A stretch of 64,000 bases of DNA from a virus, in the UHGV virus genome UHGV-0049167. One strand, given 5' to 3'. Each line of letters starts with the position of its first letter. The stretch's first letter is position 1. Below the pieces are notes generated by a model, which saw nothing but the letters and a program-made list of their open reading frames with translations, was not told the DNA's origin and searched no databases. Below are positions 1-63,336 of the stretch, piece by piece. The position numbers were made by a program, and so were the translations under genes.

Positions 1-254
1 ATCATTTTATCAACGTCTTCCCTGATTTCAGACTTAATTTTTTCTTTATTATGAACAGCGTAAAATATATTCCATCCTATAAGTATTGTAACAGTAATAG
101 CCAACACGTCAACTTGAATGTCTGTTTGCATTTCTTTTGGACTGTCAGTTGAAATACACAGCATTCCTATGATTGAAGCAATCGCCAATGCGCAAGTAAT
201 AATACTTACACATATCAAGGCATTGGCAACATTCATCTTCGTTTCTGAATCCAT
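1..254 (-). CDS. small hydrophobic protein, N-terminal part (gene runs off window start)
   Basis: ATG at 254 on minus strand, frame open to window edge; translation MDSETKMNVANALICVSIITCALAIASIIGMLCI... contains a hydrophobic helix. Confidence 0.3.
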   Translation of the reverse strand, partial: MDSETKMNVANALICVSIITCALAIASIIGMLCISTDSPKEMQTDIQVDVLAITVTILIGWNIFYAVHNKEKIKSEIREDVDKM

Positions 255-292
255 ATTATTCGAGCATATATTTAATAATTTCCTTTTTCAAT

Positions 293-1039
293 TTATTTAG
301 TTGGCATCCCTAAAACCATTTGCCCGTGTGAATTATTTAAGACAAATTCGTATTTGATTTTAATGCCAAAACTTTGATTACATTTCCATATCAAATCCTG
401 CAAATAAAAATCATTTAATCCGCCGTTTGTAATAATTAAACCATTCTTTTCTTTTTCGTGAGAAGTTACACAAACAATGGATGCTGTTAATTTTAGTGAA
501 TTATAATATTGCTCTACGAATTTTTGAACTTTATCATTCTTTTGCGGAGAATTAAATTTTAATACAAGCATATTATTTATTCTTCCTCCTTTTGGGTCTA
601 TTGCAGGGTTGTTTTTCAATATTTCAATCTCTTTATTAAAGTTAGTTTTGATATCAGAAATAGTTTTATCTGTTTGTATAGCCTTTTCCTTTATTCCATC
701 TTTTAGTTCTTTGGCATTTATTATTTGCCAACTAACGGTAAAAACTACAAGTAATGCCAATATGCCGACTATGGCACCGATGTAATCGAAACCTAACTGA
801 TTAGGATGTGTCATACATAAGGCTGTAATACTAAAAAATAGAGCTAAGAAATTTGTACATACAAGAATAAAAGACTTTATACCTGTGGTTTTCTTTTTAG
901 CAAAATAAATAACAAATAAAATTAAAATCAAAAAGATTGCAACATCAATAACGTCGTTGTACTTATTTATAATATCGCCAATGCACTTAATCCATTGACA
1001 ATTTAGTAATAAACTCATTATTGTTGGTGAAGTTCCCAT
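293..1039 (-). CDS. integral membrane protein (N-terminal TM helices plus soluble C-terminal domain), function unknown
   Basis: 248-aa ORF; hydrophobic segments FLILILFVIYFA, FILVCTNFLALFFSITALC, IGAIVGILALLVVF; 1-nt gap after upstream regulator gene. Confidence 0.55.
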   Translation of the reverse strand: MGTSPTIMSLLLNCQWIKCIGDIINKYNDVIDVAIFLILILFVIYFAKKKTTGIKSFILVCTNFLALFFSITALCMTHPNQLGFDYIGAIVGILALLVVFTVSWQIINAKELKDGIKEKAIQTDKTISDIKTNFNKEIEILKNNPAIDPKGGRINNMLVLKFNSPQKNDKVQKFVEQYYNSLKLTASIVCVTSHEKEKNGLIITNGGLNDFYLQDLIWKCNQSFGIKIKYEFVLNNSHGQMVLGMPTK

Positions 1040-1040
1040 A

Positions 1041-1457
1041 TCAGCAATTACTTAATAATATTCTTTTATTTAACTCAACTATGGTTTTCATTATATTCTG
1101 CGCCTCCTCCAACAGAGATTGGTGCTTTTCGTAAAGCATATTCATTTCTTTCATTAAAGCAACCTTATCTTCCATTGAAAGATTTTCGCAGTTTGCTATA
1201 TTTTTGCTATCGTTTGCTATATTCTTGCTATGTTCATATTTTAGTCCGGCACCATTTACAAGCCATTCCCTGCTCACACCCATCTTTTCACAAATAGCAT
1301 TTATTAGTGGGTCGGGATTGCGTACACCTCGCAATATTGAAGATATTGTCGATTGAACAACGCCAGTTATTTCCGCTAAACCAATTTGATTCAGCGAATG
1401 CTCACGCATTATATCCTTTATGCGATTGCATATTTCAGTATTACGATTTTCTATCAT
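1041..1457 (-). CDS. XRE-family helix-turn-helix transcriptional regulator (repressor-like)
   Basis: N-terminal HTH-like segment LNQIGLAEITGVVQSTISSILRG; coiled-coil-like C-terminus; contains in-frame 21-bp tandem duplication. Confidence 0.75.
   Translation of the reverse strand: MIENRNTEICNRIKDIMREHSLNQIGLAEITGVVQSTISSILRGVRNPDPLINAICEKMGVSREWLVNGAGLKYEHSKNIANDSKNIANCENLSMEDKVALMKEMNMLYEKHQSLLEEAQNIMKTIVELNKRILLSNC
1191..1232. repeat. 21-bp tandem duplication x2 (19/21 identical) inside regulator gene, giving four TTGCTAT motifs at 10-11 bp spacing
   Basis: gtttgctatatttttgctatc / gtttgctatattcttgctatg read directly; encodes SKNIAND/SKNIANC. Confidence 0.8.
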
Positions 1458-1459
1458 GG

Positions 1460-1471
1460 CAAATATATTTG
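1460..1471. promoter_or_regulatory. 12-bp perfect palindrome CAAATATATTTG abutting the regulator start codon; candidate operator
   Basis: Palindrome read directly; half-site CAAATATA recurs at 1603-1610; about 15 such palindromes expected by chance in 64 kb, so position is the only support. Confidence 0.3.
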
Positions 1472-1661
1472 TGCTAATAATATGTTAATTAAAGCATTTA
1501 TATCGCATGTATTGCTTTATTATTGCTATATTTGCACCATTGAAATACAAAAACAGCGGTGTGGGGAGCGATGTTTATCGCACCTTTGGAACTTGACACT
1601 TGCAAATATAACGAAAATATCGCAAACCACACCTTGTTTTATATGAAATATATAAAGAATT

Positions 1662-1901
1662 ATGGATAAAAAAGCGGTAGTAACGGTAGACGACATCTTG
1701 CAGATTAAGCCCGGCACGTTTCGGGTGTTCTACTGCGGCACGGCATTGCAATGCCGCAGCGCACAGTCGCAGGTGCAATACGCAAAGCGTTATCGCAAGC
1801 CCGACGATGTGGGCGACTACACGACAAAGTGCGACTATGACAGATGCACGGTAACGGTGTCAGCCCTGCCCGTGATTGAAATGAAAGAGGTGAAACAATA
1901 A
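1662..1901 (+). CDS. hypothetical protein
   Basis: 79-aa ORF with ATG start, divergent from regulator gene. Confidence 0.45.
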   Translation: MDKKAVVTVDDILQIKPGTFRVFYCGTALQCRSAQSQVQYAKRYRKPDDVGDYTTKCDYDRCTVTVSALPVIEMKEVKQ

Positions 1902-1914
1902 AACAACTAACAAT

Positions 1915-2253
1915 ATGAAGCATTATAATTTTATTTGCGCGGCAACATTGCTGTTCCTTGCAAGCTGCACAAGCGCAACGCAAGACAGACTGCCGAAAAA
2001 TCCGAAAGACAAGGAAGTCTACAAGGACGACAACGGGAGCAGTTGGATATGGAATGCGGCTGCGGCCTGTTGGATGATGAGGGCGGCAAATGGGGCAACA
2101 TATCAATATCACCCTACGACGGGCAGCTTCACAAACGCTTCGGGAGCCAAGGTCACGCCGCCGACCAATGTGTCTCGTGGGCTTGTCGGCCATAGCGGAG
2201 GCGGCAGGGCTGTCTTTGGCAGCACAGGAAGGGGTGCGTCTGTATCAGCTTAA
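1915..2253 (+). CDS. predicted lipoprotein
   Basis: N-terminus MKHYNFICAATLLFLASCTS resembles signal peptide with lipobox Cys; Gly/Ser-rich C-terminus. Confidence 0.55.
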   Translation: MKHYNFICAATLLFLASCTSATQDRLPKNPKDKEVYKDDNGSSWIWNAAAACWMMRAANGATYQYHPTTGSFTNASGAKVTPPTNVSRGLVGHSGGGRAVFGSTGRGASVSA

Positions 2254-2264
2254 GAATATCAACC

Positions 2265-3368
2265 ATGAGACGGATAAACGTAAGGCCGCGCAACGGCTAC
2301 AAGCAAAAAATAGAGGAACTGGGCTTCTGTTTCCATGAGGGCTATTGGAAAGAGGAGGCTTGCTACGAGTTTGGCATGGCGGAGATTGAAGCCATCGAAA
2401 AGGCGACCAACGAATGCTATGCCATGTGCTGCGATGCCGTCCAGCACATGATAGACAGCGAAACGTTCCCAATGGACGGCATACCGCAAAGGCTGAAAGA
2501 CGCCATCGTGGCTTCGTGGGAGAAAGACGACCTGTCTCTATACGGAAGGTTCGATTTTGCTTTCGACGGCAATACGCCCAAGCTGCTGGAGTTCAACGCA
2601 GACACCCCAACATCGCTGCTTGAATGCTCCGTGATACAATGGGATTGGAAGCAAGAGGTGTTCCCCTCGTGCGACCAGTTCAACGGCATACATGAGGCTC
2701 TGGTGCAGAGCTTCCGCGACATACACGGGCGGTATGGCTTCGGAAAATACCACTTCGCCTGCTGCCGCGAAAACCTCGAAGACGAGGAGACCTTGCAATA
2801 CATATTGTCCGCCGCGATGGAGGCAGGGCTTGACGTGGCCGAAGTTTCAATGGAACAAATGCTCCTTGATGATGGCGTGTTCCGTACAGCAAACGGCGAC
2901 AGGGTGGAGTGCTGTTTCAAGTTATACCCATGGGAGTGGATGATGACCGAAAGCCCGGAGGGTTGCATGGCCGACACAGTGTGGATAGAGCCTCTTTGGA
3001 AGTCGCTAATGTCAAACAAACTCCTGCTAAGGGTACTTTACGACCTATATCCCGACTCGCCCTACATACTGAAATGTCAAAACGCCCCCAACGGATTGAA
3101 ATCTTACTGCAAAAAGCCGATATTCGGTCGTGAGGGAGCAAACGTGGTGCTTGTCAAGGATGGCTCTGTACTTGAACAGACTGGCGGTGAATATGGAAAC
3201 GATGGATATGTCTACCAGGAAATTGCCGACATACCATGCTTCGATGGCAAATATCCAATAATCGGCTCGTGGGTGATAGGCGGCGAGGCCGCCGGCATGG
3301 GCATCCGCGAATCGTCAACACGGATAACGGACAACATGAGCGAGTTCATTCCCCACATAATAAAGTAA
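2265..3368 (+). CDS. glutathionylspermidine synthase (GspS) family ATP-grasp-like amide ligase
   Basis: 367 aa; motif RFDFAFDGNTPKLLEFNADTPTS and overall length match my recollection of GspS/YgiC-type proteins. Confidence 0.75.
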   Translation: MRRINVRPRNGYKQKIEELGFCFHEGYWKEEACYEFGMAEIEAIEKATNECYAMCCDAVQHMIDSETFPMDGIPQRLKDAIVASWEKDDLSLYGRFDFAFDGNTPKLLEFNADTPTSLLECSVIQWDWKQEVFPSCDQFNGIHEALVQSFRDIHGRYGFGKYHFACCRENLEDEETLQYILSAAMEAGLDVAEVSMEQMLLDDGVFRTANGDRVECCFKLYPWEWMMTESPEGCMADTVWIEPLWKSLMSNKLLLRVLYDLYPDSPYILKCQNAPNGLKSYCKKPIFGREGANVVLVKDGSVLEQTGGEYGNDGYVYQEIADIPCFDGKYPIIGSWVIGGEAAGMGIRESSTRITDNMSEFIPHIIK

Positions 3369-3372
3369 CGAT

Positions 3373-3552
3373 ATGCTACTATTCAAAATCTCCGTCTTGA
3401 CGTTCAACGTCCTCATAACGCTCGCCTGCTTCTACGGTGTCTACAAGACATGGGCGCAGACAGACGGACAACACGCGATTCTTCTCACAGGGCTGGCGAT
3501 ACTTTGCCTCAATGTCCTGCTGTACACAACTTACTTCTGCATGACAATTTAA
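3373..3552 (+). CDS. small hydrophobic protein (59 aa)
   Basis: ATG at 3373, stop at 3550; translation MLLFKISVLTFNVLITLACFYGVY... is largely hydrophobic; below ORF-track length cutoff. Confidence 0.35.
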   Translation: MLLFKISVLTFNVLITLACFYGVYKTWAQTDGQHAILLTGLAILCLNVLLYTTYFCMTI

Positions 3553-3566
3553 AAAAGGAGGCAGTG

Positions 3567-3857
3567 ATGAAACCCAAATACAAGGTCGGAGAAATATTGA
3601 TTCCACGGCAATTGCCATCCAACTTGGCACTTCCTATGAATATGGATATTATTGCTTTAGTCAACAAACATTCTGGCTGTAAGTTTAAAGTGCAAGAGAT
3701 TGTGAAAGTTGACTCGGCTTTGCATACATGGTTTGAATACCATTTAGTAAAGGAATCGGGGAAGAGAGAGAGAATAACAATATCTGATAGGTATTCCAGG
3801 TACTTCAAGAAATCGAGGCGCATAACATTTAACTTCGGGTACAGACAGTATGATTGA
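3567..3857 (+). CDS. small protein, paralog 1 of a three-gene array (C-terminal ITFNFG motif)
   Basis: Internal ATG at 3567 preceded by AAGGAGG; C-terminus RITFNFGYRQYD. Confidence 0.5.
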   Translation: MKPKYKVGEILIPRQLPSNLALPMNMDIIALVNKHSGCKFKVQEIVKVDSALHTWFEYHLVKESGKRERITISDRYSRYFKKSRRITFNFGYRQYD

Positions 3858-4020
3858 TTGTGACAAATGTATTTTTCATAGCCTGTTTGGGTGCTCACCA
3901 CCCCGCGACATTGACTGCGAGACTGCAATGATAATATCATCTAAAGTACACAAGTCTAACCATTCATGTGGTAAACATATAACATTCAACTTCGGGCAAT
4001 ATGGAAAGGAAGATAGGTGA
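3850..4020 (+). CDS. small Cys-rich protein, paralog 2 (56 aa, not in ORF track)
   Basis: ATG at 3850 overlapping stop of previous gene; translation MIDCDKCIFHSLFGCSPPRDIDCETA...GKHITFNFGQYGKEDR; shares 18-nt repeat with paralog 1. Confidence 0.35.
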   Translation: MIDCDKCIFHSLFGCSPPRDIDCETAMIISSKVHKSNHSCGKHITFNFGQYGKEDR

Positions 4021-4228
4021 GACGTTCTATTTTGAGGGCCACAAGCTGAAAGTAATCGAACGAAAAGTTTGCGAAGGTTGCTTCTTCGCGCGACTGCCGT
4101 GCGAGCAGAAACGTTACCTTGACGTTCATGGATATTGCGCAAAATCAAGGACAGACGACCATTTTGTCAAATTCATAGAAATAACGCCAATGTCTACCCG
4201 CAAGCACATAAAGTTCAACTTCAAATAA
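4001..4228 (+). CDS. small Cys-rich protein, paralog 3
   Basis: 75 aa; CEGCFFARLPCEQ...C and C-terminus HIKFNFK resembling the other two. Confidence 0.45.
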   Translation: MERKIGETFYFEGHKLKVIERKVCEGCFFARLPCEQKRYLDVHGYCAKSRTDDHFVKFIEITPMSTRKHIKFNFK

Positions 4229-4242
4229 ACAATAAAAACAAT

Positions 4243-4644
4243 ATGGTAATGCACAAGGTAATACCAATCGAGATATACAACACCGACCTGCTGGTGTGCT
4301 TCGGCGACGTGCAAGGCGTAAAAGAAGCCTTGCAGGAATACATCGGCGATGAAAAGGCGGAGGAGACAATGCGCAACTTCGGAAAAGTGCGCGAATCCAC
4401 GCTTGCGCGAACTTGCATGGCTGCGAACGGCGGAGTGCTACTATGGATGCCATCGATACCCGACAATACAAAGGATTACGCGACGCTGGCGCATGAGGCA
4501 CTTCACGCTGCTGCTTATACAATGAGAAAGGCAGGCGTACCGTTCTCCACCGACACGGAAGAAGCATACGCCTACCTCATAGGTTACATAACATTGCAAA
4601 TAGAGGAGTTTATCGCCGCTTGCCAACAGGGCGGTGTTCCTTGA
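4243..4644 (+). CDS. small protein with HExxH motif (HEALH); possible minimal zinc-metallopeptidase fold
   Basis: Internal ATG at 4243; motif TLAHEALHAAAYTM. Confidence 0.45.
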   Translation: MVMHKVIPIEIYNTDLLVCFGDVQGVKEALQEYIGDEKAEETMRNFGKVRESTLARTCMAANGGVLLWMPSIPDNTKDYATLAHEALHAAAYTMRKAGVPFSTDTEEAYAYLIGYITLQIEEFIAACQQGGVP

Positions 4645-4843
4645 CCGTCGTACTCTTGTGCCTTTCGGCATACTTCTGAGTGACAAACTGCCCGGTCTTA
4701 GCGTCGCGGTAAAGCTCCTTTTCGTCAGTCTTTGCCATAAGCGAATAAGATTATAGGGATTCACGGCAATATCGCCGCTTACAGGAATCGTGGCAAACAC
4801 CATGCCAACGAATAAGATATAACAATTTAAAAACAAAATAATT

Positions 4844-5149
4844 ATGAAACGAATTACAGCTTACTTGAAAGACAAGATTGCCAACATCAAGGCCGAGAAC
4901 AGAGAGAAAAGAATCTATGCGACCATCGAGACTGCAAAAATCAACAAGGAGGGCGAGATTGCAGACGCAGAGGTTGGTATTGAGAAAGCCATCGAGGAGC
5001 TTGCCAGCACCGACAACGTGGGCGAAGTGATACAGCGCATATCTGACTACATGGACGACAAGGAGGAGGCGCAGCGCGGCATTGAGCGGCTGGAGGAGAT
5101 TAAGAAGTTCCTCTCCGAGGACATCGACACGGAGGCCGCAGAAAAATGA
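4844..5149 (+). CDS. hypothetical acidic coiled-coil protein
   Basis: 101-aa ORF rich in E/K/D. Confidence 0.45.
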   Translation: MKRITAYLKDKIANIKAENREKRIYATIETAKINKEGEIADAEVGIEKAIEELASTDNVGEVIQRISDYMDDKEEAQRGIERLEEIKKFLSEDIDTEAAEK

Positions 5150-5245
5150 AGCACACTAAGATAAAACACCGATTGGCGGCAAGCGTGAAATTTGATGGTT
5201 AGACGCTTAAAATTGCTTGCCGCCCCGATTTAATAAACAAGAAAT

Positions 5246-5461
5246 ATGGCAACACCAACGATAACAAGCAGGGGCAAAGTCCTCGAAGTTGAAAAAGTTT
5301 GGCTGAACAGCAAAGAGGCAGAAGCTTACTTGGGTATGTCGGCAGACTTTTTCAAGGATTTGAGAGCCAATGGGCAAATCCGCTTCTACAAGGTGCGTGG
5401 CGCGATATTTTACAAGAAGTCTGACATCGACAGGCTTGTCGAAAAAAGCAGGGTTGTTTAG
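5246..5461 (+). CDS. small helix-turn-helix DNA-binding protein (excisionase/MerR-like)
   Basis: 71 aa; segment WLNSKEAEAYLGMSADFFKDLRANGQIRFYKV resembles Xis-type HTH. Confidence 0.5.
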   Translation: MATPTITSRGKVLEVEKVWLNSKEAEAYLGMSADFFKDLRANGQIRFYKVRGAIFYKKSDIDRLVEKSRVV

Positions 5462-5462
5462 A

Positions 5463-5639
5463 ATGAACAAAGAAAGGAGACCCATAAAGCTCCGCTACGG
5501 CAAGGTGAAAGCATTGGCAAAGATATTCGGATGCTCGCGGATGACGGTTGAGCGCGCCCTACGGTGGGAGTTCGACACGGAACTTGCCGACAAAATACGC
5601 GAAAGGGCGGAGAGACTTGGGTTTATAAAAAGGTATTAG
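5463..5639 (+). CDS. small basic protein, possibly DNA-binding
   Basis: Internal ATG 1 nt after previous stop; 58 aa; KIFGCSRMTVERALRWEF resembles an HTH. Confidence 0.35.
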   Translation: MNKERRPIKLRYGKVKALAKIFGCSRMTVERALRWEFDTELADKIRERAERLGFIKRY

Positions 5640-5896
5640 CTATATCCATCATCAGGCACGGCGGTGCCAAGAAGTATTTCCATAAACTAAAGTTAAAACA
5701 TCATGCGTATGCCGCCCGTGAGGGTGGCATGCCTGAGCCGCCGGACAGTAAGGCTGTCATTACGCTTCGAGCGCGTCGGCGGCGCAACATGACAGGACTT
5801 TCTTTGACATATTGATATACGAAAGTAGAAGCCACGGACGAGACGGCAATCCATGACCCCGTGGCGAGGACTACGAGTAGGGCTGGAATAAAAAAT

Positions 5897-5915
5897 GAGG
5901 CGAGAACACCGCCTC
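5897..5915 (-). terminator. candidate intrinsic terminator (6-bp GC-rich stem, 7-nt loop, U6 tract on minus strand)
   Basis: gaggcg-agaacac-cgcctc with aaaaaa immediately upstream on plus strand (UUUUUU after hairpin on minus). Confidence 0.3.
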
Positions 5916-6139
5916 TTTAAAATATAATCAAGATTGTCGCCTGTCTTATACGGTGACAAGCGTGCGGTATGTAAAACTCCGCACGTCGGTTTGAACGAAC
6001 AATTCAGTCTTGGCTAAATGCTACGAAATGAGTCCGTCCCTGTTATTTTGTTAGGGGAAAGGTTATAAAGGGTGCGGTGTGGGCGACCGCTTCGGCTGAC
6101 GCTATGTACTGTAATATATGAATATCCCCGCGCTGTGCG

Positions 6140-6898
6140 CTATGGCACTGCTCCCGAAGAGGGCGCGGGGAACTGACCAACCAGCAGATTTTGGAGCTTG
6201 TACAATGAAAGAGAATAGCTATCATCCGCAGTATTCCGGAGATGACGGAAAAGAGCGTCAAGCGACGACCAGCGTCGCATGTCCCCGAATTGAAGGATTA
6301 TCTTCCACAGACAAGGATTCTTCTGAAAGAGAGGCAGCATCGTCGTTGATAGATTTGAGTAAATTCCCCGTTGGTACAAAGGTTGTCCGAGTTTATCCAG
6401 ATTTTGTTTTAGATATTCCCGACAGTTACTTTGAACGGTGCCGAGGTTTGCATTGCGGCAGTTCACAATCCAATCCTTTACGTGGTTATCTATCCGAAGA
6501 ACACCGCAAAGAGCAATTAGCCTATCTAAATGGCAGATTGCCGACAAATCGCAAATAGTCTCTTCGAACCACATCAAGCCGGTAACATTACCTGACGTGT
6601 TCCCGTTTATGAGGTGATGGCAGTACTCATGGGCAAATTGATATACCCACCGCCACAAGTCATCTCCTTTCACATGCAGGCATATGCGGTGTCCGGCTTC
6701 CCCCATACTGTAAATCTCAGGATGCCCGTCCTGATAACATATGATGCAATTGCTTGTGGTAAAAGCTTGGGTGCCTATCCAACTGGAAAAGTCTATTTGT
6801 ACTTGTTGCAGCAGCCTATGTACAATATGTTTATTATACGTTCCAAATTTGGGGTCTTCGGCTACGTAAATGTTGTCGGATATTCTGTTTGCTTTCAT
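6140..6898 (-). CDS. HExxH-motif protein, possibly ImmA/IrrE-like metallopeptidase domain
   Basis: Internal ATG start MKANRISD; motif QFAHEYCHHLING resembles HELGHILMH of the ImmA fusion at 27041-28096; a plus-strand ORF overlaps (see rejected). Confidence 0.4.
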   Translation of the reverse strand: MKANRISDNIYVAEDPKFGTYNKHIVHRLLQQVQIDFSSWIGTQAFTTSNCIICYQDGHPEIYSMGEAGHRICLHVKGDDLWRWVYQFAHEYCHHLINGNTSGNVTGLMWFEETICDLSAICHLDRLIALCGVLRIDNHVKDWIVNCRNANLGTVQSNCREYLKQNLDKLGQPLYQRGIYSNLSTTMLPLFQKNPCLWKIILQFGDMRRWSSLDALFRHLRNTADDSYSLSLYKLQNLLVGQFPAPSSGAVP

Positions 6899-7071
6899 AA
6901 GTTTTATTTGGCACAGCAAAGATACTAATAAATTGCACACGCATATGTTTTGAACAAGGTTTTATTTGGCGATTTAATCTCAGTGTGTGCAAATTCCCGT
7001 ACCCTTTTGTGAGGGTTGTAAGCGTCCACACCGGAACACGCACGGGAACCACACCAACTATATTATTATTT

Positions 7072-7284
7072 ATGTACCAGAAAATTCTTTTAGTTTCGGT
7101 ATGGCTGGTTGTTTCACTTCTCGTCGTTTCGCTTTTATGTGAAATGCTCTCGGCAAGCGACACCATATCCAACATGTGCGGCTTCGTGCTTCTGATAGCA
7201 TACGCCCTGCTAAGCGTCAAGACACGGTTATTTACAAAATTCAAGTTCAATAACAAAAACAACAACAAAATCAAGTTCAAATGA
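7072..7284 (+). CDS. small membrane protein (partner of SPFH protein, NfeD-like role possible)
   Basis: Internal ATG; hydrophobic LLVSVWLVVSLLVVSLL and GFVLLIAYALL; ATGA overlap with next gene. Confidence 0.4.
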   Translation: MYQKILLVSVWLVVSLLVVSLLCEMLSASDTISNMCGFVLLIAYALLSVKTRLFTKFKFNNKNNNKIKFK

Positions 7285-8075
7285 AAAAGAAAAACATTTT
7301 TATCATGGCGGTTGCCGCCTTATCCTGCATGTCGTGTTCCGAAAGGATAGATGCAGGCTGCGAGGGCATCTTGGTGAACATGTACGGCGACGACAAGGGA
7401 GTCGACGGCGTGAGTCTTTGCACCGGGCGCGTGTGGTACAACCCTTTCACCGAGGAAGTCTACGAGTACCCGACCTACGTGCAGACGATTGACTACAAGC
7501 CGTTCACAATCAACGCAAAGGACGGCTCGGAGTTCACCATCGACCCGACAATCTCGCTGAAAATAATCGACGGCAGGTCGCCCGTGGTGTTCAAGAAATA
7601 CCGCAAGGAGCTGAAAGACGTAATAGAGGGCACACTTTACAATTACGTGAAAGATGCTTTCCGCATACAGCTCAACCGCTACACTACGGACGAGATTGTA
7701 TCCAACAGGGCGTTGGTGGAAAAGAGCATCGAACAATACTTGTCGCAGACGCTCACAAAGGAGAATTTCAAGCTGGAGCAGCTCACGTCGGGGCTTAAGT
7801 ATCCCGACGTCATCGTCCAAAGCGTCAACGCCAAGAACAAGGCGGTGCAGGAAGCCATGAAGGTGGAGAACGAGCTTAAGGTGGTCGAGGCGGAAGCCAA
7901 GAAGAAAATAGTAGCCGCCGAAGCCGAGTACAAGGCAAACGAGCTGCGCACGAAGTCGCTCACCCCGGCTGTGCTGCAGAAGATGTGGATTGAGAAATGG
8001 GACGGGACAATTCCTACAGTCGTTACTGGAGGAAATTCATCTACATTTTTGGATTTAAGCAAATTAAAAAAATAA
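7281..8075 (+). CDS. SPFH/band-7 (prohibitin/stomatin-like) domain lipoprotein
   Basis: 264 aa; signal/lipobox-like MAVAALSCMSCS; SPFH-like core followed by Ala/Glu/Lys-rich coiled coil. Confidence 0.75.
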   Translation: MKKKNIFIMAVAALSCMSCSERIDAGCEGILVNMYGDDKGVDGVSLCTGRVWYNPFTEEVYEYPTYVQTIDYKPFTINAKDGSEFTIDPTISLKIIDGRSPVVFKKYRKELKDVIEGTLYNYVKDAFRIQLNRYTTDEIVSNRALVEKSIEQYLSQTLTKENFKLEQLTSGLKYPDVIVQSVNAKNKAVQEAMKVENELKVVEAEAKKKIVAAEAEYKANELRTKSLTPAVLQKMWIEKWDGTIPTVVTGGNSSTFLDLSKLKK

Positions 8076-8956: not shown

Positions 8957-9838
8957 ATGAACAACACCACAACGTCAACGGGAGCCACAGCCGCTCCCGC
9001 ACAGAAACATTCAAGCATCCAGTCGCTTATGAACAGCCCGGCTGTAATGGCAAAGATAAGCAAGTGTCTCGGAACGGAGAAGAAAGCCGCCGCTTTCGCC
9101 AGCTCGGTAATATCGATAGCGACAGGCAGCGCGCAGCTGCGTGACTGCAATCCCACCACCATATTGGGAGCGGCTATGGTAGCCGCCACCCTCGACCTTC
9201 CGATTGTACCCACGCTCGGCATGGCATATATTGTCCCTTATAAAGGACAGTGTCAGTTCCAGATAGGCTACAAGGGGCTTATAGAGCTTGCCGAGCGCAG
9301 CGGAGTCTTCAGGAACATAATCGACGAGGTCGTATACGAGGGACAGCTTATGAGGAAGAACAAGTTCACCGGAGAATACGTCTTCGACGAGGACGCCAAG
9401 AAGTCCGACACCGTAATCGGCTACATGGCACGCTTCGACCTTACCAACGGCTTCTCAAAGACCATCTACTGGAGCAAGGAAGAGGTGGAGAGGCACGCCA
9501 GAAGATTCTCACAGGCTTACAGCAAGGGATACAGCACCCCATGGTCGACAGACTATGATACAATGGCGAGAAAGACCGTCCTTAAAGCCCTCTTCGCGAA
9601 ATATGCGCCCAAGAGCATATCGTATGCCCTGCAGACGGCAATCACTTTCGACCAGTCAGTCAGCGCTCCCAAACACACCGACAATATTTCCGAGGATGTG
9701 CTCGAGCTGAACTCTTTCGACGTGGTCTATGCTGACAACGACAGCAACGAGGCTGCTGTGGAAGCAAGGCAGGAGGCTGTACAGGAGCAGAAGAAGGCTG
9801 TCAGGGCAAAAACGGATGAAACACCGAAACTGTTATGA
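8957..9838 (+). CDS. recT: RecT-family single-strand annealing recombinase
   Basis: 293 aa; segments LGMAYIVPYKGQCQFQIGYKGLIELAERSG and size fit RecT family as I recall it. Confidence 0.7.
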   Translation: MNNTTTSTGATAAPAQKHSSIQSLMNSPAVMAKISKCLGTEKKAAAFASSVISIATGSAQLRDCNPTTILGAAMVAATLDLPIVPTLGMAYIVPYKGQCQFQIGYKGLIELAERSGVFRNIIDEVVYEGQLMRKNKFTGEYVFDEDAKKSDTVIGYMARFDLTNGFSKTIYWSKEEVERHARRFSQAYSKGYSTPWSTDYDTMARKTVLKALFAKYAPKSISYALQTAITFDQSVSAPKHTDNISEDVLELNSFDVVYADNDSNEAAVEARQEAVQEQKKAVRAKTDETPKLL

Positions 9839-11937
9839 ACAGATACGCCGCATACAGCCGTGAGCAGATAGAAGAGCTGCAATCCCATTACCTCATTGAC
9901 TCGTGGTCGTACTCTAAGGTGGCGACATTCGCGCGCAACGAGAAATCCTTTGAGAAGCAGTACGTCTACTACGACAAGGAGAAGCGCAGCGTCTCGTCCA
10001 TAGCGGGCAACGCCTACCACGAATCATTGAGGCTGTACTTCACAACCTTGAAGCAGGGCGGCACGGAGATTTCCTTGCCCGAGCTGGAGGAGTCAGCCTT
10101 CTCTTACATAGACAATGTTCCGGCGAACGAGTGGAAGCCGTCAAAGACATGTCCCACGGTAGAGGAGTGCCGTATCAAGGCATTCAAGTCCGTATCGTCA
10201 TTGCTGCGCAATTTCTACGGTGAGCGCACGGTCTATACTGATTCCATCGGAGAAGTTCTCGGTGTGGAGCTTTCCTGCCGCGAGTTCCTTACGGTCAACG
10301 GTGTGGATATACCGTTGCCGTGCAATGCGGTAATAGACCTTGTGTTCCGACATAAGGACGGACGTGTGATAATAGTGGACCACAAGACGCGCTCACGCTA
10401 TACGGATGAGGAGGAGGTCGCCTTCACTTGCGGCAAGCAGGCGGTGACTTATCTTCTCGCCTACGAGGCTAAGGAGGGCATTACTGCGGATGAGGTATGG
10501 TTCGTTGAGAACAAGGAAAGCGTGAACAAGAACGGCTCTCCGCAACTCGCAAGACAGGTCATGACTATGGATACGGACAGCCGCCGCCTTTATGAGGCGT
10601 TGCTTTACGAGCCGCTCCGCCGCATGGTGGAGGCAGTGTCCGACCCGGACTATGTGTTTGTTGCCAACGACACGGACAGCCTTTGCGACCGTGGCGCGCT
10701 GTTCAGCTTCTGGGCAAAGACCATGATAGCCGAGGTGTCAGACTTCGACATACCCGAGAATAAGAAAGAACTTATCACAAGACGTCAGCGCAAGATACGC
10801 GACGCGTCCCTTGCCGTGATAAGCCCCAAGACAATAAGCCTTTTCAAGAAAAAGGCGGCATCATTCATACAATATGATTTAACAGATACAGATATGAGCA
10901 ATCCGGAAAAGATAGAGCATGTGCTGCGTACGTTCGGCATACTCACGCAGGTGGCTCACGAGATGCAGGGTCATTCCTCGTGCACCTATCTGCTTGAGGC
11001 GAGCGCGGGAGTGAAAATCAGCCAGATTTCGAAATACAGGCTCGATATAGCCAATGCCCTCAATGTGCCATCAGTGAGAATAGGTGACAACCTCGTGGTT
11101 TACGAGGGCAAGTCATACCTTCCCGTCGAGGCTCCGGTAAAGGGCGGAGGCATCCTGTATTGGGACGTGAAATACCTTGAGGACAAGAACCGCATACCTC
11201 TCGGTGTGGACAATTTCGGAAATGTGATATGTTGGGACATCCACAATCATGCCACACCGCACATGCTTATATGCGGAGCCACAGGCAGCGGAAAATCCGT
11301 AAGTATAATAAGTACTGTCGAATACGCCCTTGAGGCAGGCATTAATGACATAACGATATTCGACCCGAAATACGAGTTCTGCGGTTACGCCTCGCGTCCC
11401 GGAGTCAAGGTCTACAATGAGATAGAGGACATAGAGGAGCAGATGCGGCTATGCGTCGAAGACATGCAGAGCCGTGCAAGAACCGGAGTCCATCAGCTTA
11501 AACTGATAGTGTTCGACGAGTTCGCGGATGCGGTGGCGTCGGCAAAGTCAGGTGCGGAGCTTGATATAAAGGAAATGGTCGAGGTCGGACAGCGGAAGGG
11601 TGATTTCGGCATGCTTGTCCCAAAAATGGAACTGAGGACGACAGGAAGGCTCAAATCGCTCGAGGAGAACCTGAAAATGCTGTTGCAGAAGGGACGCTCG
11701 CTCGGCTTCCGCATAATCGCCGCGACGCAGCGTGCGTCCGCCAATGTCATAACAGGTGACGCGAAGGTTAACTTCCCTGTGCTTGTATGCTTCCGCGTGC
11801 CTAAAGAGATAGACTCGAAGGTCGTCCTTGACGAGCCTGGGGCGGAAACCCTTAATGGCAAGGGCGACGGACTGATAAAAAGTCCCGAATACTTCGGACT
11901 CGTACGTTTCCAAGGATTTTATAAACCAAACCCATAA
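9835..11937 (+). CDS. fusion protein: N-terminal PD-(D/E)XK nuclease domain + C-terminal FtsK/SpoIIIE-like P-loop ATPase
   Basis: 700 aa; nuclease-like IDLVFRH...IIVDHKTR; Walker A LICGATGSGKS, Walker B LIVFDEF, FtsK-like IIAATQRASANVITGD; ATGA overlap with recT. Confidence 0.7.
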   Translation: MNRYAAYSREQIEELQSHYLIDSWSYSKVATFARNEKSFEKQYVYYDKEKRSVSSIAGNAYHESLRLYFTTLKQGGTEISLPELEESAFSYIDNVPANEWKPSKTCPTVEECRIKAFKSVSSLLRNFYGERTVYTDSIGEVLGVELSCREFLTVNGVDIPLPCNAVIDLVFRHKDGRVIIVDHKTRSRYTDEEEVAFTCGKQAVTYLLAYEAKEGITADEVWFVENKESVNKNGSPQLARQVMTMDTDSRRLYEALLYEPLRRMVEAVSDPDYVFVANDTDSLCDRGALFSFWAKTMIAEVSDFDIPENKKELITRRQRKIRDASLAVISPKTISLFKKKAASFIQYDLTDTDMSNPEKIEHVLRTFGILTQVAHEMQGHSSCTYLLEASAGVKISQISKYRLDIANALNVPSVRIGDNLVVYEGKSYLPVEAPVKGGGILYWDVKYLEDKNRIPLGVDNFGNVICWDIHNHATPHMLICGATGSGKSVSIISTVEYALEAGINDITIFDPKYEFCGYASRPGVKVYNEIEDIEEQMRLCVEDMQSRARTGVHQLKLIVFDEFADAVASAKSGAELDIKEMVEVGQRKGDFGMLVPKMELRTTGRLKSLEENLKMLLQKGRSLGFRIIAATQRASANVITGDAKVNFPVLVCFRVPKEIDSKVVLDEPGAETLNGKGDGLIKSPEYFGLVRFQGFYKPNP

Positions 11938-20576: not shown

Positions 20577-20862
20577 ATGGAACAAGACAACGTTATCGCA
20601 AAGGAATGCTCGCACTGCCACCGCACGTTGCCCGTCACGGAGTTCTACAAGAAGAAAGGCACGTCCGACGGTCTGCAATACTACTGCAAGCAGTGTCAAA
20701 TTGAGTTTAACAACGCCTACAAATGCAAGAAGAAGGCTTTCGGGGGGGGGGAATCCCGAACTCTCACGCTTCACGCCACGTCAGCTTATGGAGGAACTTA
20801 AAGCCCGCGGCTATACTGGAGAACTGAAATATGTACAAACAATAAATCTTGAAAGATTATGA
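20577..20862 (+). CDS. zinc-ribbon protein interrupted by a G10 tract; full-length product needs a 1-nt frame change at 20742-20751
   Basis: Frame 0 gives CSHCHRTLPVTEFYKKKGTSDGLQYYCKQCQ...GGG then early stop at 20801; +1 frame continues NPELSRFTPRQLMEELKARGYTGELKYVQTINLERL and ends at 20862 in ATGA overlap with next gene. Confidence 0.45.
20742..20751. repeat. G10 homopolymer tract inside coding sequence
   Basis: cgggggggggga read directly. Confidence 0.9.
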
Positions 20863-21815
20863 CACAGACCGGCATAATCGTCCTTCCGCATCAAATCAAA
20901 ATGAAAGCGTGTGAAATACAACTCGACTACGACACCGTAATGTCAAAGGTAAGCCGCCCGCTTGCAAGGAAGCTGGTACACTCCGTGGAGCTTTTGCGGA
21001 AGTCGGAGAAAATGGCGTTGCGCCTCGACCCCGAAAACGGCTTTTACCTTGCGTTCAGCGGCGGCAAGGACAGCCAATGCCTCTACCATGTCGCAAAGCT
21101 GGCCGGTGTCCGCTTCAAGGCTCACATGAACCTTACGAGCATAGACCCGCCCGAAGTCATCCGCTTCGTCAAGACGCAATACCCCGATGTGGAGCTAATC
21201 AAACCACGGATGAGCATTTACGAAATGGCTAAGAAAAAGCACATCTTGCCTACAAGGATTTTGCGCTGGTGTTGCGCCGAGTTCAAGGAAACGTCAGGCG
21301 TTGGCAAAATAACACTTGTCGGTGTGAGAAAAGAAGAAAGCGCACGGCGAGCCAAACGTGAGGAAATATCCACAGAGATAAAGGGCAAGCGCACTGAGGA
21401 AACCTTTGACCAATGGAGCGAACATGAGGAGAGCATGGTTGCGTGTGTCGGCGGTAAGGACAAAATCCTTGTATCGCCCATAATCTATTGGACGGAGCGC
21501 GACGTGTGGGAGTTCCTTAACGTGAACGGCATACCACACTGCGAACTCTACGACGAGGGTTATACACGCATTGGCTGCATCTGTTGCCCTATGTCGCAAC
21601 CATGGCAAAAAGCCAAAGAGATTAAACGTTGGCCGCACGTCAAACGCAATTGGATAAAGACAATCCAATGGCTGATAGACAACGGATATATCGACCACAA
21701 TTTCAACGACGCTGAAACAGGCTTTAGGTGGTGGATAAGCGGCAAGGGCTACAAGCAGTTCTACGCCGACGAGTTCCTGCAACAGAAAATTGAATTTAAA
21801 GACAAAGACCAATGA
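20859..21815 (+). CDS. phosphoadenosine phosphosulfate (PAPS) reductase family protein (PP-loop ATP pyrophosphatase fold)
   Basis: PP-loop motif YLAFSGGKDSQCLYHV; 318 aa. Confidence 0.7.
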   Translation: MTQTGIIVLPHQIKMKACEIQLDYDTVMSKVSRPLARKLVHSVELLRKSEKMALRLDPENGFYLAFSGGKDSQCLYHVAKLAGVRFKAHMNLTSIDPPEVIRFVKTQYPDVELIKPRMSIYEMAKKKHILPTRILRWCCAEFKETSGVGKITLVGVRKEESARRAKREEISTEIKGKRTEETFDQWSEHEESMVACVGGKDKILVSPIIYWTERDVWEFLNVNGIPHCELYDEGYTRIGCICCPMSQPWQKAKEIKRWPHVKRNWIKTIQWLIDNGYIDHNFNDAETGFRWWISGKGYKQFYADEFLQQKIEFKDKDQ

Positions 21816-23501: not shown

Positions 23502-24557
23502 ATGAATTTTGCCAAATTTTACGATATAAGTGATTGGGTAGAAAAGCCCTACATCAACACAAAAGGTACCAGGAACAAATGTATTGTCATAGACCCAGAT
23601 AGTGGTATTGAATATTATTTCAAAACCTCTATCCACAAAGGTGCTATGGACTACAAGACTGAGTTCTGGTCAGAAATCATAGCTTCCAAAGTTGGGCAAT
23701 ATCTGAATTTCAATGTGCTGGATTATAACATAGCCAAACATAAGGATGAAGTCGGTTGCCTCTCTATGTCTATGATAAAAGACGGTGAATGCCTTACGGA
23801 GGGTATAAGTCTACTGACAGGATTCGACAATACTTATCGACCGTCAGACAAAGATTCATATTCACAATACACTTTCCATTTCATTGAAGAGGCCATAAGC
23901 AGTTTCGGATTGTCAAAGAACATTGACGATGTTATCAGGACCATTATCTTTGACTCTATAATAGGGAATAGTGACAGGCATCAAGAAAACTGGGGGTTCA
24001 TCACGCCTTTTCAAGAAAAAACATTAACAAGGGAGGAGGCAAAAAGTTTTCTTGGAAGATTGAAAGAGCGCATCAAGAAGATACAGGATTCATCGCGTGG
24101 CAACAACGGAAACGTTCCTTTAGACGTCCACGTCAAGATACGGATTTTGCAAATTGTCGGTAAATACGCTCCGATATATGACAGTGGATGCTGTCTCGCA
24201 CGTGAAAAAAACGAAGGAGCCGTAAGGCAAATGCTTAATGACAAAATAATGTTCGACAGTTTTGTCAACCGTGGGCAGTCTGAAATACGTTGGGACGAAA
24301 GTGGGAGAAAGCTAAACCATTTCGAGTTGATAAAGCGCATAAAAGAAAAATATTACGAAGTCGTTACCGATACAATCAACCAAGTCATCGCCGTTTATGA
24401 TGAAAATAAGATACATGACATTGTATTTAACATAGACAAGCGCCTTCCTGACGTACTGAAAGCTGACGAACGTTGGGCTTTGTCTGATGACAGGAAAGAA
24501 TTGATATGTAGATTGATTGACGAACGTTTTAACAGACTAAAAAACATTATATTATGA
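23502..24557 (+). CDS. HipA-like (PI3/4-kinase fold) serine/threonine kinase domain protein
   Basis: Catalytic-loop-like DSIIGNSDRHQENWGF and APIYDSGCCLA; 351 aa, lacks long HipA N-terminal region; AT-rich upstream region. Confidence 0.6.
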   Translation: MNFAKFYDISDWVEKPYINTKGTRNKCIVIDPDSGIEYYFKTSIHKGAMDYKTEFWSEIIASKVGQYLNFNVLDYNIAKHKDEVGCLSMSMIKDGECLTEGISLLTGFDNTYRPSDKDSYSQYTFHFIEEAISSFGLSKNIDDVIRTIIFDSIIGNSDRHQENWGFITPFQEKTLTREEAKSFLGRLKERIKKIQDSSRGNNGNVPLDVHVKIRILQIVGKYAPIYDSGCCLAREKNEGAVRQMLNDKIMFDSFVNRGQSEIRWDESGRKLNHFELIKRIKEKYYEVVTDTINQVIAVYDENKIHDIVFNIDKRLPDVLKADERWALSDDRKELICRLIDERFNRLKNIIL

Positions 24558-25225
24558 AAAGATATATAAGACAAATCTACTTGGTATGGAGACGAGGTAG
24601 AAACGAAAGAAGAATAAAGGTCGGAAGAATTCTCCGTAATAGTACGGAGGGGGTACGGTTCATGTACATGTCAGAAGGAGTCAAGGAAGCAGTGGAAAAA
24701 GGATTCAATATGTATCCTGATTTTCCAGACCCAGGAAAAGTGTACCATAACAACGTGCTTGAAATATTTTCACAGAGGTTGAACAACACCGAACGTTCAG
24801 ATATACAAAAGTATTATGACTATTGGGAAATAAGCCCTGAGATGAAAGATGACAAATATTATGTGCTTGCCCAAACGCAAGGACTTCTGCCGACAGACAC
24901 ATTCGAGTTTCTTGCAGAATATTATCCGGTAAAGGATTTGCGTTTTACCAGCGAAATTTGTGGATTGACAAAAATGCAGCTTCCTAACGGAACTTTGAAA
25001 GAAGGTGATATGCTAAAATGGAAATTGGAGCCAAGTAATCCTTACGATAAATATGCCGTAAAGTTATATAAGGAGAATAAGGAATTAGGATATGTTAAAT
25101 TAATACACAGTAAGGTTTTCCATGATTCAAAATACAAAAAATTCGCTGTAAAGGTAAAAAGCGTAGAACAGAATGGACATATAAACAGGGTTTTTGTTTC
25201 CGTATCCACTATTAATGTCAGGTAA
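24554..25225 (+). CDS. HIRAN-domain protein
   Basis: C-terminal EPSNPYDKYAVKLYKENKELGYV resembles HIRAN signature; ATGA overlap with kinase gene. Confidence 0.55.
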   Translation: MKRYIRQIYLVWRRGRNERRIKVGRILRNSTEGVRFMYMSEGVKEAVEKGFNMYPDFPDPGKVYHNNVLEIFSQRLNNTERSDIQKYYDYWEISPEMKDDKYYVLAQTQGLLPTDTFEFLAEYYPVKDLRFTSEICGLTKMQLPNGTLKEGDMLKWKLEPSNPYDKYAVKLYKENKELGYVKLIHSKVFHDSKYKKFAVKVKSVEQNGHINRVFVSVSTINVR

Positions 25226-62811: not shown

Positions 62812-63336
62812 TTACAATCCCTTTCTCCTCCCATACTCACATATCAGCAAGGCGTCGCACTTGTTGTCGTCATCGTCCTTGCATCTCTCTGTCCTACGGA
62901 AGTCTATGCGGGGGAAAAGACGCTTTCCCGCGTTCAGCGAGGTTTTTTTTGTATCAATCCTCCTGAGGGTCTTCCCGTTTGTACATTTCGACTTATACTC
63001 CTTATCTTGATTAATCCATATCTCACCCTGCCATATCTTAGGCTGAACAAGATGGTATGGAATACCCAATGCTGTAAGAATCCCTATAAGTATTCCATTG
63101 ATTTTTCCAAATGCGAATGTAGATTTTGCAGACGAGCCTAATATTGCATGTACTTCTTCCATACAGCATACGACGTTACAGTCGCTTGCAAAAATTATAC
63201 CTTTAAGAAAGTCCACAATCTTTGCATATCCGGCATCCTTTATCGAAAGGAAGTCTTTCATCCCGTTCGCATACATTACGGCTATGAACCCTGCACTTCC
63301 AGGGTCTATCCCTATATAAACTCTTCCGCTATCCAT
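62812..63336 (-). CDS. RuvC-like Holliday junction resolvase
   Basis: N-terminal VYIGIDPGSAGFIAV resembles RuvC motif; 174 aa. Confidence 0.6.
   Translation of the reverse strand: MDSGRVYIGIDPGSAGFIAVMYANGMKDFLSIKDAGYAKIVDFLKGIIFASDCNVVCCMEEVHAILGSSAKSTFAFGKINGILIGILTALGIPYHLVQPKIWQGEIWINQDKEYKSKCTNGKTLRRIDTKKTSLNAGKRLFPRIDFRRTERCKDDDDNKCDALLICEYGRRKGL

Follow-up and report, generated by a model that had tools for sequence, protein, structure and literature searches.

A probable ygiB-ygiC-type lipoprotein-ligase module carried as cargo in the early operon of a Bacteroidales phage

The virus genome UHGV-0049167 was analyzed as a 64-kb stretch of phage DNA, referred to as the window, and this work concerns two adjacent genes near its left end that encode a small lipoprotein and an ATP-grasp ligase (Table 1). 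Coordinates are positions in the window unless a contig is named, and L-numbers denote the contigs and loci compared with it. The two genes lie to the right of a phage regulatory region. The repressor-like product of this region matches Pfam HTH_3 and also PHROG transcriptional repressor and regulator families, with E-values down to 8e-15. In the divergent intergenic region beside it, TATATTTG boxes occur at 1460 and 1603 on the minus strand and at 1464 and 1527 on the plus strand. These two boxes per strand are four of the eight found in the whole window. The TATATTTG box is a Bacteroidetes-type -7 motif (consensus TAnnTTTG). The intergenic region is the probable source of a rightward early transcript that would read through both genes. 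From the 79-aa open reading frame (ORF) onward, successive plus-strand genes are separated by gaps of 13, 11, 4, and 14 nt. Simple consensus scans, which are crude and give weak negatives, found no TAnnTTTG box on the plus strand from 1534 to 6350 and no terminator-like site on that strand before about 4620. The ORF pattern at the locus is not due to chance.

The initial annotation had grouped the lipoprotein and the ligase with a small membrane protein beside the phage regulatory region. All three ORFs and the regulatory neighborhood proved real, but the membrane protein falls outside the module. This 59-aa protein has hydrophobic stretches at about residues 3-25 and 35-57, as read from the sequence, and its ORF is considered a real gene because 10 clusters of relatives exist at 78-92% identity. 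No DUF350 match was obtained at E up to 1, and the best insignificant matches were DUF6358 (0.064) and Anthrone_oxy (0.4). The gene is absent from chromosomal ligase loci. Since the sister prophages L101-L103 retain it without the lipoprotein and ligase genes, the 59-aa protein flanks the slot and is no component of the lipoprotein-ligase module. On the other side of the slot, the 79-aa protein has no match in Pfam, PHROG, NCBIfam, or PADLOC. Its DNA is 95% conserved in the cassette-less L101-L103, and the gene is also present in L096-L099.

Comparison with related contigs defined the limits of the cargo. In L096, L097, L099, and L005, DNA identity of 96-99% to the window is limited to one block, and the DNA flanking this block is at most 75% identical or unalignable. 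The left end of the block lies at 1202, 746, 1520, or 1847, and the right end lies at 3551-3601. In three of the four contigs the block stops at 3551-3554, practically at the point where the 59-aa ORF has its stop codon. The sister prophages L101-L103 occupy the same host site as L097 and align to the window at 1484-1902 (95%) and 3380-3554 (86%). Between these aligned stretches they carry an unrelated segment of about 700 nt encoding a multi-transmembrane protein of 93 aa and a second protein of 119 aa. Because L101-L103 swap only that stretch, the cargo consists of exactly two genes. The lipoprotein and ligase genes are transferred together as one cassette in a variable slot. A classical moron would have its own promoter and terminator and a foreign composition; the crude scans and the GC values gave no sign of these features in the cassette, which is weak negative evidence, and the cassette does act as an exchangeable unit. 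The only other stretch common to L005, L096, L097, L099, and L101-L103 is 6122-6343, with about 74% DNA identity. It is the 3' part of an opposed 266-aa ORF (6140-6940, minus strand) without a family match, and the sister prophages have a 252-253-aa minus-strand gene at the matching site.

Phage genes span the whole window. Neither a tRNA nor a terminal repeat was found in it, and the prophage ends are not defined within it. Megablast of window positions 1-8000 against the INPHARED phages gave no match. The initial annotation had proposed looking for the region in related phages: the exact ligase protein is present on at least 22 gut-metagenome contigs, and the sister prophages L101-L103 lack the cassette. 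Contig L098 is the same as the window (99.985% identity over 13,368 nt) and reaches 7.7 kb further left. In L097, recognizable host genes (a LacI-type regulator, an altronate dehydratase-like gene, a Na+/H+ antiporter, and NTP_transf_5) stop about 4.6 kb left of the cassette. An integrase gene is situated just past the repressor in L096, L099, and L005. To the right of the cassette, all contigs have phage early genes, namely HTH_17, Sak or RecT recombinases, DUF4494, VRR_NUC, and DnaB. Since phage genes lie on both sides and host genes appear only kilobases further left, the cassette is genuine phage cargo inside the prophage, located between the repressor and the early recombination and replication genes. 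The further left part of L098 also holds a HigB-like toxin gene with an HTH_3 antitoxin gene (L098 4707-5368, about 2.4-3 kb left of window position 1), situated between a host Peptidase_S41 gene and the phage immunity region. A gene-free gap at L098 1978-4292 might contain the attachment site.

A comparison of GC content with phage genes, also proposed in the initial annotation, placed the cassette with the phage early genes. The cassette has a GC content of 0.52-0.54 and a third-position GC content (GC3) of 0.57-0.65, and the RecT, Band_7, and FtsK-like early genes have GC contents of 0.51-0.53. The AT-rich immunity genes, at 0.29-0.35, are unlike the cassette.

Table 1. Features of the locus, landmark genes of the window, and potassium channel loci in the compared contigs
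Feature	Position	Strand	Remark
HTH_3 repressor-like protein, 138 aa	1041-1457	(-)	left arm of genetic switch; Pfam HTH_3 E 3.7e-06
Divergent AT-rich intergenic region, 204 nt, GC 0.31	1458-1661	no strand	four exact TATATTTG boxes
79-aa first gene of rightward operon	1662-1901	(+)	phage backbone gene; left edge of cargo slot
Exchangeable two-gene cargo cassette	1903-3379	(+)	limits set by sister-prophage comparison
Small lipoprotein, 112 aa	1915-2253	(+)	DUF1190-like architecture; lipobox LASC, Cys18
Putative YgiC/YjfC-type ATP-grasp carboxylate-amine (peptide-polyamine) ligase, 367 aa	2265-3368	(+)	PF03738 match
59-aa protein with two transmembrane segments	3373-3552	(+)	phage backbone gene; right edge of slot
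RecT	8957-9838		
PDDEXK/FtsK-like protein	9835-11937		
Tail-fibre protein, 2720 aa	35573-43735	(-)	
Portal	43735-45219		
Large terminase	45768-47390		
Major head protein	48989-50167		
Tape measure	53267-59014		
Resolvase	62812-63336		
K+ channel loci	L010 6987-9107 (also L011, L012, L105-L119); L004 7470-9107; L104 2630-4763		positions are those of the contigs named

The ligase matches PF03738 (GSP_synth) with 437.3 bits (cutoff 29.3; E 6.5e-131) over residues 13-366 of 367, and it matches PHROG 6215 with E 1.4e-110. This full-length match bears out the initial assignment to the glutathionylspermidine (GSP) synthetase (GspS) superfamily of ATP-grasp amide ligases, but the GspS-type identity itself gave way to a YgiC type. 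In the PDB sequences, YgiC (7uk8, E 7e-82) and YjfC (7uk6, E 1e-75) match from residue 1 or 2 to residue 366, whereas GspS (E 3e-24) and trypanothione synthetase match best just over ligase residues 238-365. The NCBIfam GspS equivalog NF007801 scored 124.6 bits against a cutoff of 882, with its best match in the C-terminal part (239-366). Residues were mapped in a MAFFT alignment numbered according to GspS. The GspS residues R316, D318, E330, N332, K498, K533, R538, Q568, and R598 correspond to ligase R95, D97, E109, N111, K252, K284, R289, Q318, and R348, and these nine catalytic, ATP, or Mg positions are invariant in a 12-sequence alignment. At GspS positions S335, S337, C338, T441, C539, and Q582, by contrast, the ligase has T, T, S, L, E, and I, just as YgiC and YjfC do. 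The catalytic and pocket roles of these GspS residues are those reportedly assigned by Pai et al. 2006. The ligase has no N-terminal CHAP amidase domain, so it resembles a stand-alone synthetase, and its sequence contains no signal peptide.

The RefSeq product name of both YgiC and YjfC is "peptide--spermidine ligase". The review PMC11762307, citing Pederick 2023 and Sui 2012, describes YgiC as having peptide-spermidine ligase activity and no GSP synthetase activity and gives its physiological substrate as unknown. ATP-dependent ligation of spermidine to peptides is known for E. coli YgiC and YjfC only (Pederick 2023, as cited there). The absence of GSP synthetase activity from YgiC and YjfC is also given, after Sui 2012, in PMC12506659, and PMC12568646 is a further source. 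Based on the matches to solved structures, the equivalog score, and the pocket residues, the phage enzyme is in all likelihood a working carboxylate-polyamine ligase of the YgiC type rather than a glutathionylspermidine synthetase.

The lipoprotein starts with MKHYNFICAATLLFLASC, which comprises a basic n-region, a hydrophobic core, and a lipobox L-A-S-C with Cys18. Cys18 is invariant in the close family and nearly so in the wider family; the lipoprotein family was represented by 65 sequences. The protein ends in ...GGGRAVFGSTGRGASVSA, and its tail (...GRAVFGSTGRGASVSA) was compared with those of Chitinophagaceae partners (...VRGGFGRGGYSVSS), bridging family members (...VSRGGFGSTGRSFSVGS), and E. 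coli YjfM (...TVSRGGYGRSSSARGHWGG). Family members P0192 and P0166 bridge the tail variant of the window to RGGFG, and the tails appear to form a continuum from the window lipoprotein through the RGGFG tails of Bacteroidota partners to E. coli YgiB and YjfM. Of 65 ligase-adjacent lipoproteins, 51 show the FG-tail pattern, compared with 16 of 439 background ORFs; the FG block is followed by 7-15 residues to the C-terminus. Partners end in Ser, Ala, or Gly in 94% of cases and background ORFs in 18%. In an AlphaFold2 (AF2) model, residues 30-80 form a small five-stranded beta core with a predicted local distance difference test score (pLDDT) of about 80, and tail residues 87-112 score below 50 and are predicted to be disordered. 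Foldseek of the AF2 model against PDB found no significant match (best E 0.2).

BLASTP of the phage lipoprotein against YgiB gave nothing significant. DUF1190 (gathering score 22 bits) was the top Pfam family over 32 members of the lipoprotein family, but it matched only 2 of the 32 (best E 0.005). Against a profile of the lipoprotein family (A3), YgiB reached 17.2 bits, more than any of 4000 shuffles (maximum 12.8), and YjfM just 4.3 bits. The partners have little in common beyond the lipobox and the C-terminal tail. The window lipoprotein is described here as DUF1190-like in its architecture, with a lipobox, a site directly upstream of the ligase gene, the same orientation, and an 11-nt gap.

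In E. coli MG1655, ygiB, which encodes a DUF1190 lipoprotein, ends 5 nt before ygiC, and yjfL (DUF350), yjfM (DUF1190), and yjfC are contiguous. The ygiB-ygiC arrangement, to which the initial annotation had pointed, was confirmed in this genome, and the pairing is kept in Bacteroidota chromosomes and in unrelated phages. In the B. gallinaceum chromosome, a 117-aa ORF that is 42% identical to the phage lipoprotein (E 6e-27) lies 14 nt upstream of the ligase, and this pair sits among housekeeping genes (uvrA, ileS). Of 77 species-representative loci whose upstream sequence was long enough, 63 carry a strict-lipobox ORF immediately before the ligase, compared with 4 of 246 background ORFs. Among the taxa are Bacteroides, Phocaeicola, Chitinophagaceae, Chryseobacterium, Pedobacter, and some gut Alphaproteobacteria. 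These counts indicate that the lipoprotein-ligase pairing is deeply conserved and that small lipobox proteins with an (R)GGFG...Ser/Ala/Gly tail precede the ligase in most Bacteroidota genomes. In 24 of the 77 loci, a second, unrelated lipoprotein of about 109 aa lies immediately upstream of the tailed lipoprotein, forming a three-gene operon. This second family ends in ...KKDYEIFITVK and is found in Chitinophagaceae, Saprospiraceae, and Chryseobacterium about 330-700 nt upstream of the ligase (L025-L092; e.g., L039 3322-3651). It is absent from the phage.

Ligase relatives are also widespread in phages. INPHARED contains 136 phage records with a relative, all below 60% identity, including Aeromonas and Acinetobacter T4-like phages, Pseudomonas phages, and the jumbo phages phiRSL1 and Motura. 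In IMG/VR, 118 contigs carry a relative; these matches were obtained with an alignment as the query, and a single ligase sequence gave none. Together with the existence of PHROG 6215, these numbers show that the initial description of the ligase as not a typical phage gene was overstated. At 53 of 76 IMG/VR loci, an ORF with lipobox and tail lies upstream of the ligase, and about 15 of the other 23 have an RGGFG-tailed ORF that either lies downstream or fails the strict lipobox filter. A tailed lipobox protein precedes the ligase in about 70-90% of the viral loci examined. The lipoprotein is present in every phage relative that was examined, in L001 and L010 as an ORF that had not been called. 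Metagenome gene callers overlooked this ORF at L001 8001-9281, L010 6987-7370, and L097 ~9651-9989, and in L001 the called ligase was stretched to 426 aa across it. Database neighborhood statistics therefore under-count the pairing.

Among individual phages, the ORF upstream of the ligase in Aeromonas phage 25 encodes a true DUF1190 lipoprotein (78.8 bits) with lipobox LSGC and tail SSGGFGKSGGFGSSGG, and an antiholin gene follows the ligase immediately. A true DUF1190 protein also precedes the ligase in Aeromonas phage LAh_8. In phiRSL1, the ligase is directly adjoined by ORF051, whose product carries a lipobox and an ARGGFG...SAGG tail and matches DUF1190 weakly. Earlier papers noted "gsp" in T4-like phages (PMC1524935) and a "YgiB-like lipoprotein" with a role "currently unknown" in phage Moon (PMC4319498). 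In a neighbor-joining (NJ) tree without support values, the ligases of gut Bacteroidales phages (65-100% identity) form one clade, and the chromosomal Bacteroides and Phocaeicola ligases (51-55% identity) form a separate one. Because the phage ligases group apart from the chromosomal ones, the tree suggests long residence of the ligase in phage genomes rather than recent capture.

A potassium channel gene (Ion_trans_2, selectivity filter T[VIT]GYG) lies repeatedly next to the pair in several unrelated phages. In the Bacteroidales phage type L010-L012, the order is lipoprotein, channel, and ligase, and in Aeromonas phage LAh_8 it is channel, DUF1190 protein, and ligase. The IMG/VR loci L145 and L146 have the channel just downstream of the ligase (~4128-4481). 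In L004, an in-frame 54-aa remnant retains the N- and C-termini of the channel with the interior deleted. No K+ channel is present in the window. The recurrence of the channel loosely points to control of cations or membrane potential.

We consider it likely that 1903-3379 carries a phage-borne two-gene module of the ygiB-ygiC type, placed in an early-operon slot of a temperate, siphovirus-like gut Bacteroidales phage and performing polyamine ligation chemistry. The pair would be the phage version of an old bacterial module that is represented by ygiB-ygiC, by yjfM-yjfC, and by the lipoprotein plus ligase of Bacteroidota. The lipoprotein would be exported and anchored by its lipid, and a flexible C-terminal tail rich in Gly and Ser would follow its small beta core. 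The cytoplasmic ligase would use ATP and Mg2+ to activate a peptide carboxylate as an acyl-phosphate, which would then be joined to an amine of a spermidine-type polyamine. This chemistry is established for the family in the literature, and we infer its use by the phage enzyme. Of the two possibilities that the initial annotation had left standing, the findings speak for a cargo gene modifying a peptide or polyamine.

As to the substrate, our leading but unproven sub-hypothesis names the partner lipoprotein itself: the carboxylate used physiologically would be the free one at the C-terminal end of its tail, modified before export. The product would be a polyamine-capped envelope lipoprotein. 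The tail is proposed because its small terminal residue echoes the Gly carboxylate amidated by GspS in glutathione, because it is the only universally conserved feature of the partner, and because ATP-grasp enzymes of the RimK type modify protein C-termini. The cassette would take effect during lytic growth or induction, with the envelope or cation homeostasis as its target. Such a role is probably to be favored over classical lysogenic conversion, since strictly lytic phages carry the pair and no promoter or terminator of the cassette's own was found. An association with the envelope is also seen in the Cpx regulation of ygiB (bioRxiv 10.1101/2022.08.05.503015), the buildup of YgiB in a tail-specific-protease mutant (PMC13435647), the location of yjfMC in a PspA-family operon, and the antiholin gene beside the ligase in Aeromonas phage 25. 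The full proposal, in which a YgiC-type ligase polyamine-caps its partner's tail before export and phages of several phyla with the pair, repeatedly joined by a K+ channel, control cation flux, membrane potential, or envelope integrity during infection, remains in our judgment unlikely. If true, it would mean an undescribed C-terminal polyamination of proteins and a cationic tethered tail in the envelope, and it would name the long-missing physiological substrate of E. coli YgiC and YjfC.

Several points weigh against the interpretation as a polyamine-ligating lipoprotein-ligase module or against its extension to the tail. The topology is a problem, since the ligase is cytoplasmic and the lipoprotein exported, so modification would have to take place ahead of Sec/Lol transport. 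The pocket signature is invariant in 75 pairs with partner termini GG, SS, and SA, and the covariation test is confounded by phylogeny. The RGGFG block stands 7-15 residues away from the terminus and might just as well serve in interactions with the envelope. The window lipoprotein has no match to Pfam DUF1190 (PF06693) even at E up to 10, and hhalign of the lipoprotein family against YgiB plus YjfM aligns the RGGFG block only, with 3% probability; DUF1190 membership of the window lipoprotein is accordingly not claimed. The NJ tree of ligases comes without support values, and a weak internal promoter may be present, since the promoter and terminator scans were simple consensus scans.

The same topology and the same invariant pocket would fit an enzyme of soluble metabolites, which joins free polyamine to a small cytoplasmic peptide or acid and lets the phage tune the host polyamine pool, for DNA charge neutralization or to blunt polyamine-based sensing. 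The lipoprotein would then be tied to the ligase in function without being its substrate, perhaps as an envelope receptor or a stress partner. The in vitro activity of YgiC and YjfC on peptides and spermidine, as given in PMC11762307, and the K+ channels beside the pair in phages, which point to cation homeostasis, agree with this explanation. However, it accounts neither for the conserved disordered tail with a small end residue from E. coli to Bacteroidota to phages nor for the joint transfer of both genes, and we regard it as possible while leaning against it. Phage lipoproteins are classic exclusion factors, and a surface lipoprotein with the ligase as its modifier could also serve as a moron for lysogenic conversion, superinfection exclusion, or defense that blocks adsorption or DNA entry of rivals. 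The slot lies beside the immunity region, and sister prophages hold other small membrane-protein genes there. On the other hand, PADLOC-DB v2 gave no match for the 79-, 112-, 367-, or 59-aa proteins at E up to 0.01, and no promoter or terminator of the cassette's own was found. The cassette is also co-oriented and tightly packed in an early operon of the kind that a repressor would be expected to silence. Strictly lytic phages, both T4-like and jumbo, have the pair as well, and so do chromosomes, where it lies in housekeeping contexts. These observations make the moron explanation quite improbable.

Two further explanations fare worse. Many phage genomes annotate such genes as true glutathionylspermidine synthetases, which would make the ligase a redox or thiol auxiliary metabolic gene, and this is how Pfam and PHROG name the family and how deposited phage records name the product. 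The equivalog score, the confinement of the GspS match to the C-terminal part, the full-length matches to YgiC and YjfC, the six replaced pocket positions, the missing amidase domain, and the reported lack of GSP synthetase activity in YgiC and YjfC (Sui 2012, as cited in PMC11762307 and PMC12506659) make this very improbable. The initial annotation had also suggested host DNA flanking the prophage, and a chromosomal Bacteroides module does share the two-gene layout. However, the region lies inside the prophage and is not conserved host chromosome beyond its boundary: phage genes occur on both sides, and the host genes of L098 and L097 are several kilobases further left. The identical ligase is found in mosaic phage backgrounds with differing repressors and recombinases, sister prophages at the same site lack the cassette, and the best chromosomal relatives are only 52-55% identical compared with 65-100% for phage-borne ones. 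We give a host origin of this stretch hardly any credence.

Other features of the phage were recorded alongside the cassette. A second lipoprotein (MKKKNIFIMAVAALSCMSC...; 7281-8075, plus strand), encoded within this early operon at a distance of 4 kb downstream from the cassette, has a Band_7/SPFH domain (E 2e-20). SPFH proteins are membrane-organizing or stress proteins, and this gene possibly provides another envelope-directed early function. A PAPS_reduct-domain protein (20859-21815, plus strand; E 2e-21) also matches PADLOC BrxP (E 2e-17), and phage-type PAPS-reductase-like genes are seen in DNA-modification and BREX contexts. At 23502-24557 (plus strand), with an overlapping ORF at 24554-25225, a HipA_C-like protein matches the PADLOC candidate defense family PDC-M03A with 200 bits (E 8e-60) and may be a prophage-borne defense or toxin kinase. 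A second regulator far from 1041-1457 is a 351-aa fusion of HTH_3 and Peptidase_M78 (ImmA/IrrE-type; 27041-28096, minus strand), which could be the protease half of an ImmR/ImmA-type induction switch. The tail-fibre or host-range protein gene contains two sets of internal direct repeats, one with a 290-nt unit in three copies at 65-87% identity (37926-39085) and one with a 69-nt unit (39320-39586).

The gene pair as such is already known from ygiBC and yjfMC and from phages as "gsp" and "YgiB-like lipoprotein", and one more copy is no discovery. Our analysis adds that the pair is resolved as phage cargo in a defined swappable slot and as a two-gene, not a three-gene, module. It also adds that a small exported protein goes with the ligase in nearly every case, and that the one universally conserved feature of this partner is a disordered C-terminal (R)GGFG tail ending in Gly, Ser, or Ala. 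Conservation of this tail spans E. coli, Bacteroidota, and lytic, jumbo, and temperate phages and opens the substrate question of YgiC and YjfC to direct test. The K+ channels beside the pair in phages of different phyla are a lead to a role in cation or envelope homeostasis during infection.

Compared with known systems, the pair appears by sequence to be a phage-borne, compact Bacteroidota version of the YgiB/YgiC module. It shares with E. coli tolC-ygiB-ygiC the gene order, orientation, tight spacing, and a lipoprotein gene directly upstream of the ligase gene, and the ligase aligns with YgiC over its full length with matching catalytic and pocket residues. Like YgiB, the phage partner carries a lipobox, and its Gly/Ser-rich tail holds what may be a variant of the (R)GGFG-type block. 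It differs from YgiB in its length (112 versus 223 aa), in lacking the Cys-rich N-terminal part, in scoring below the Pfam DUF1190 thresholds, and in its tail, which reads R-A-V-F-G and ends in Ala whereas YgiB reads R-G-G-F-G and ends in Gly-Gly. The phage pair is also carried by a phage and has no tolC linkage. The yjfIJKLMC operon likewise has a lipoprotein-ligase pair with a small membrane protein nearby, and YjfC aligns over the full length of the ligase. Unlike this operon, which includes the PspA-family YjfJ and the DUF350 protein YjfL, the phage has a 59-aa protein that is not DUF350 and is a backbone gene product, and the cassette has no PspA, DUF2170, or DUF2491 partners. The phage "gsp" genes (PHROG 6215) of Aeromonas phages 25, 44RR, and LAh_8, phiRSL1, Achromobacter phage Motura, and Citrobacter phage Moon also encode a YgiC-type ligase after a tailed DUF1190 or DUF1190-like lipoprotein. 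Their carriers are large lytic or jumbo phages of Proteobacteria with ligases of 36-44% identity, whereas the present case is a temperate Bacteroidales phage of about 60 kb whose compact Bacteroidota-type lipoprotein is encoded in an exchangeable slot next to the repressor. E. coli Gss and trypanothione synthetase share the superfamily fold, the ATP- and Mg-binding residues, and the chemistry of joining a C-terminal Gly carboxylate to a polyamine amine. The phage ligase differs from them in that the amidase domain is absent, the GspS pocket residues are replaced, and the equivalog score is far below its cutoff. If the tail hypothesis holds, the ligase would work, by analogy only, like RimK on ribosomal protein S6 or like tubulin-tyrosine ligase, which are ATP-grasp enzymes acting on the C-terminal carboxylate of a dedicated protein. 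Unlike these, it belongs to another ATP-grasp family and would use a polyamine rather than an amino acid as the donor and an exported lipoprotein as the target.

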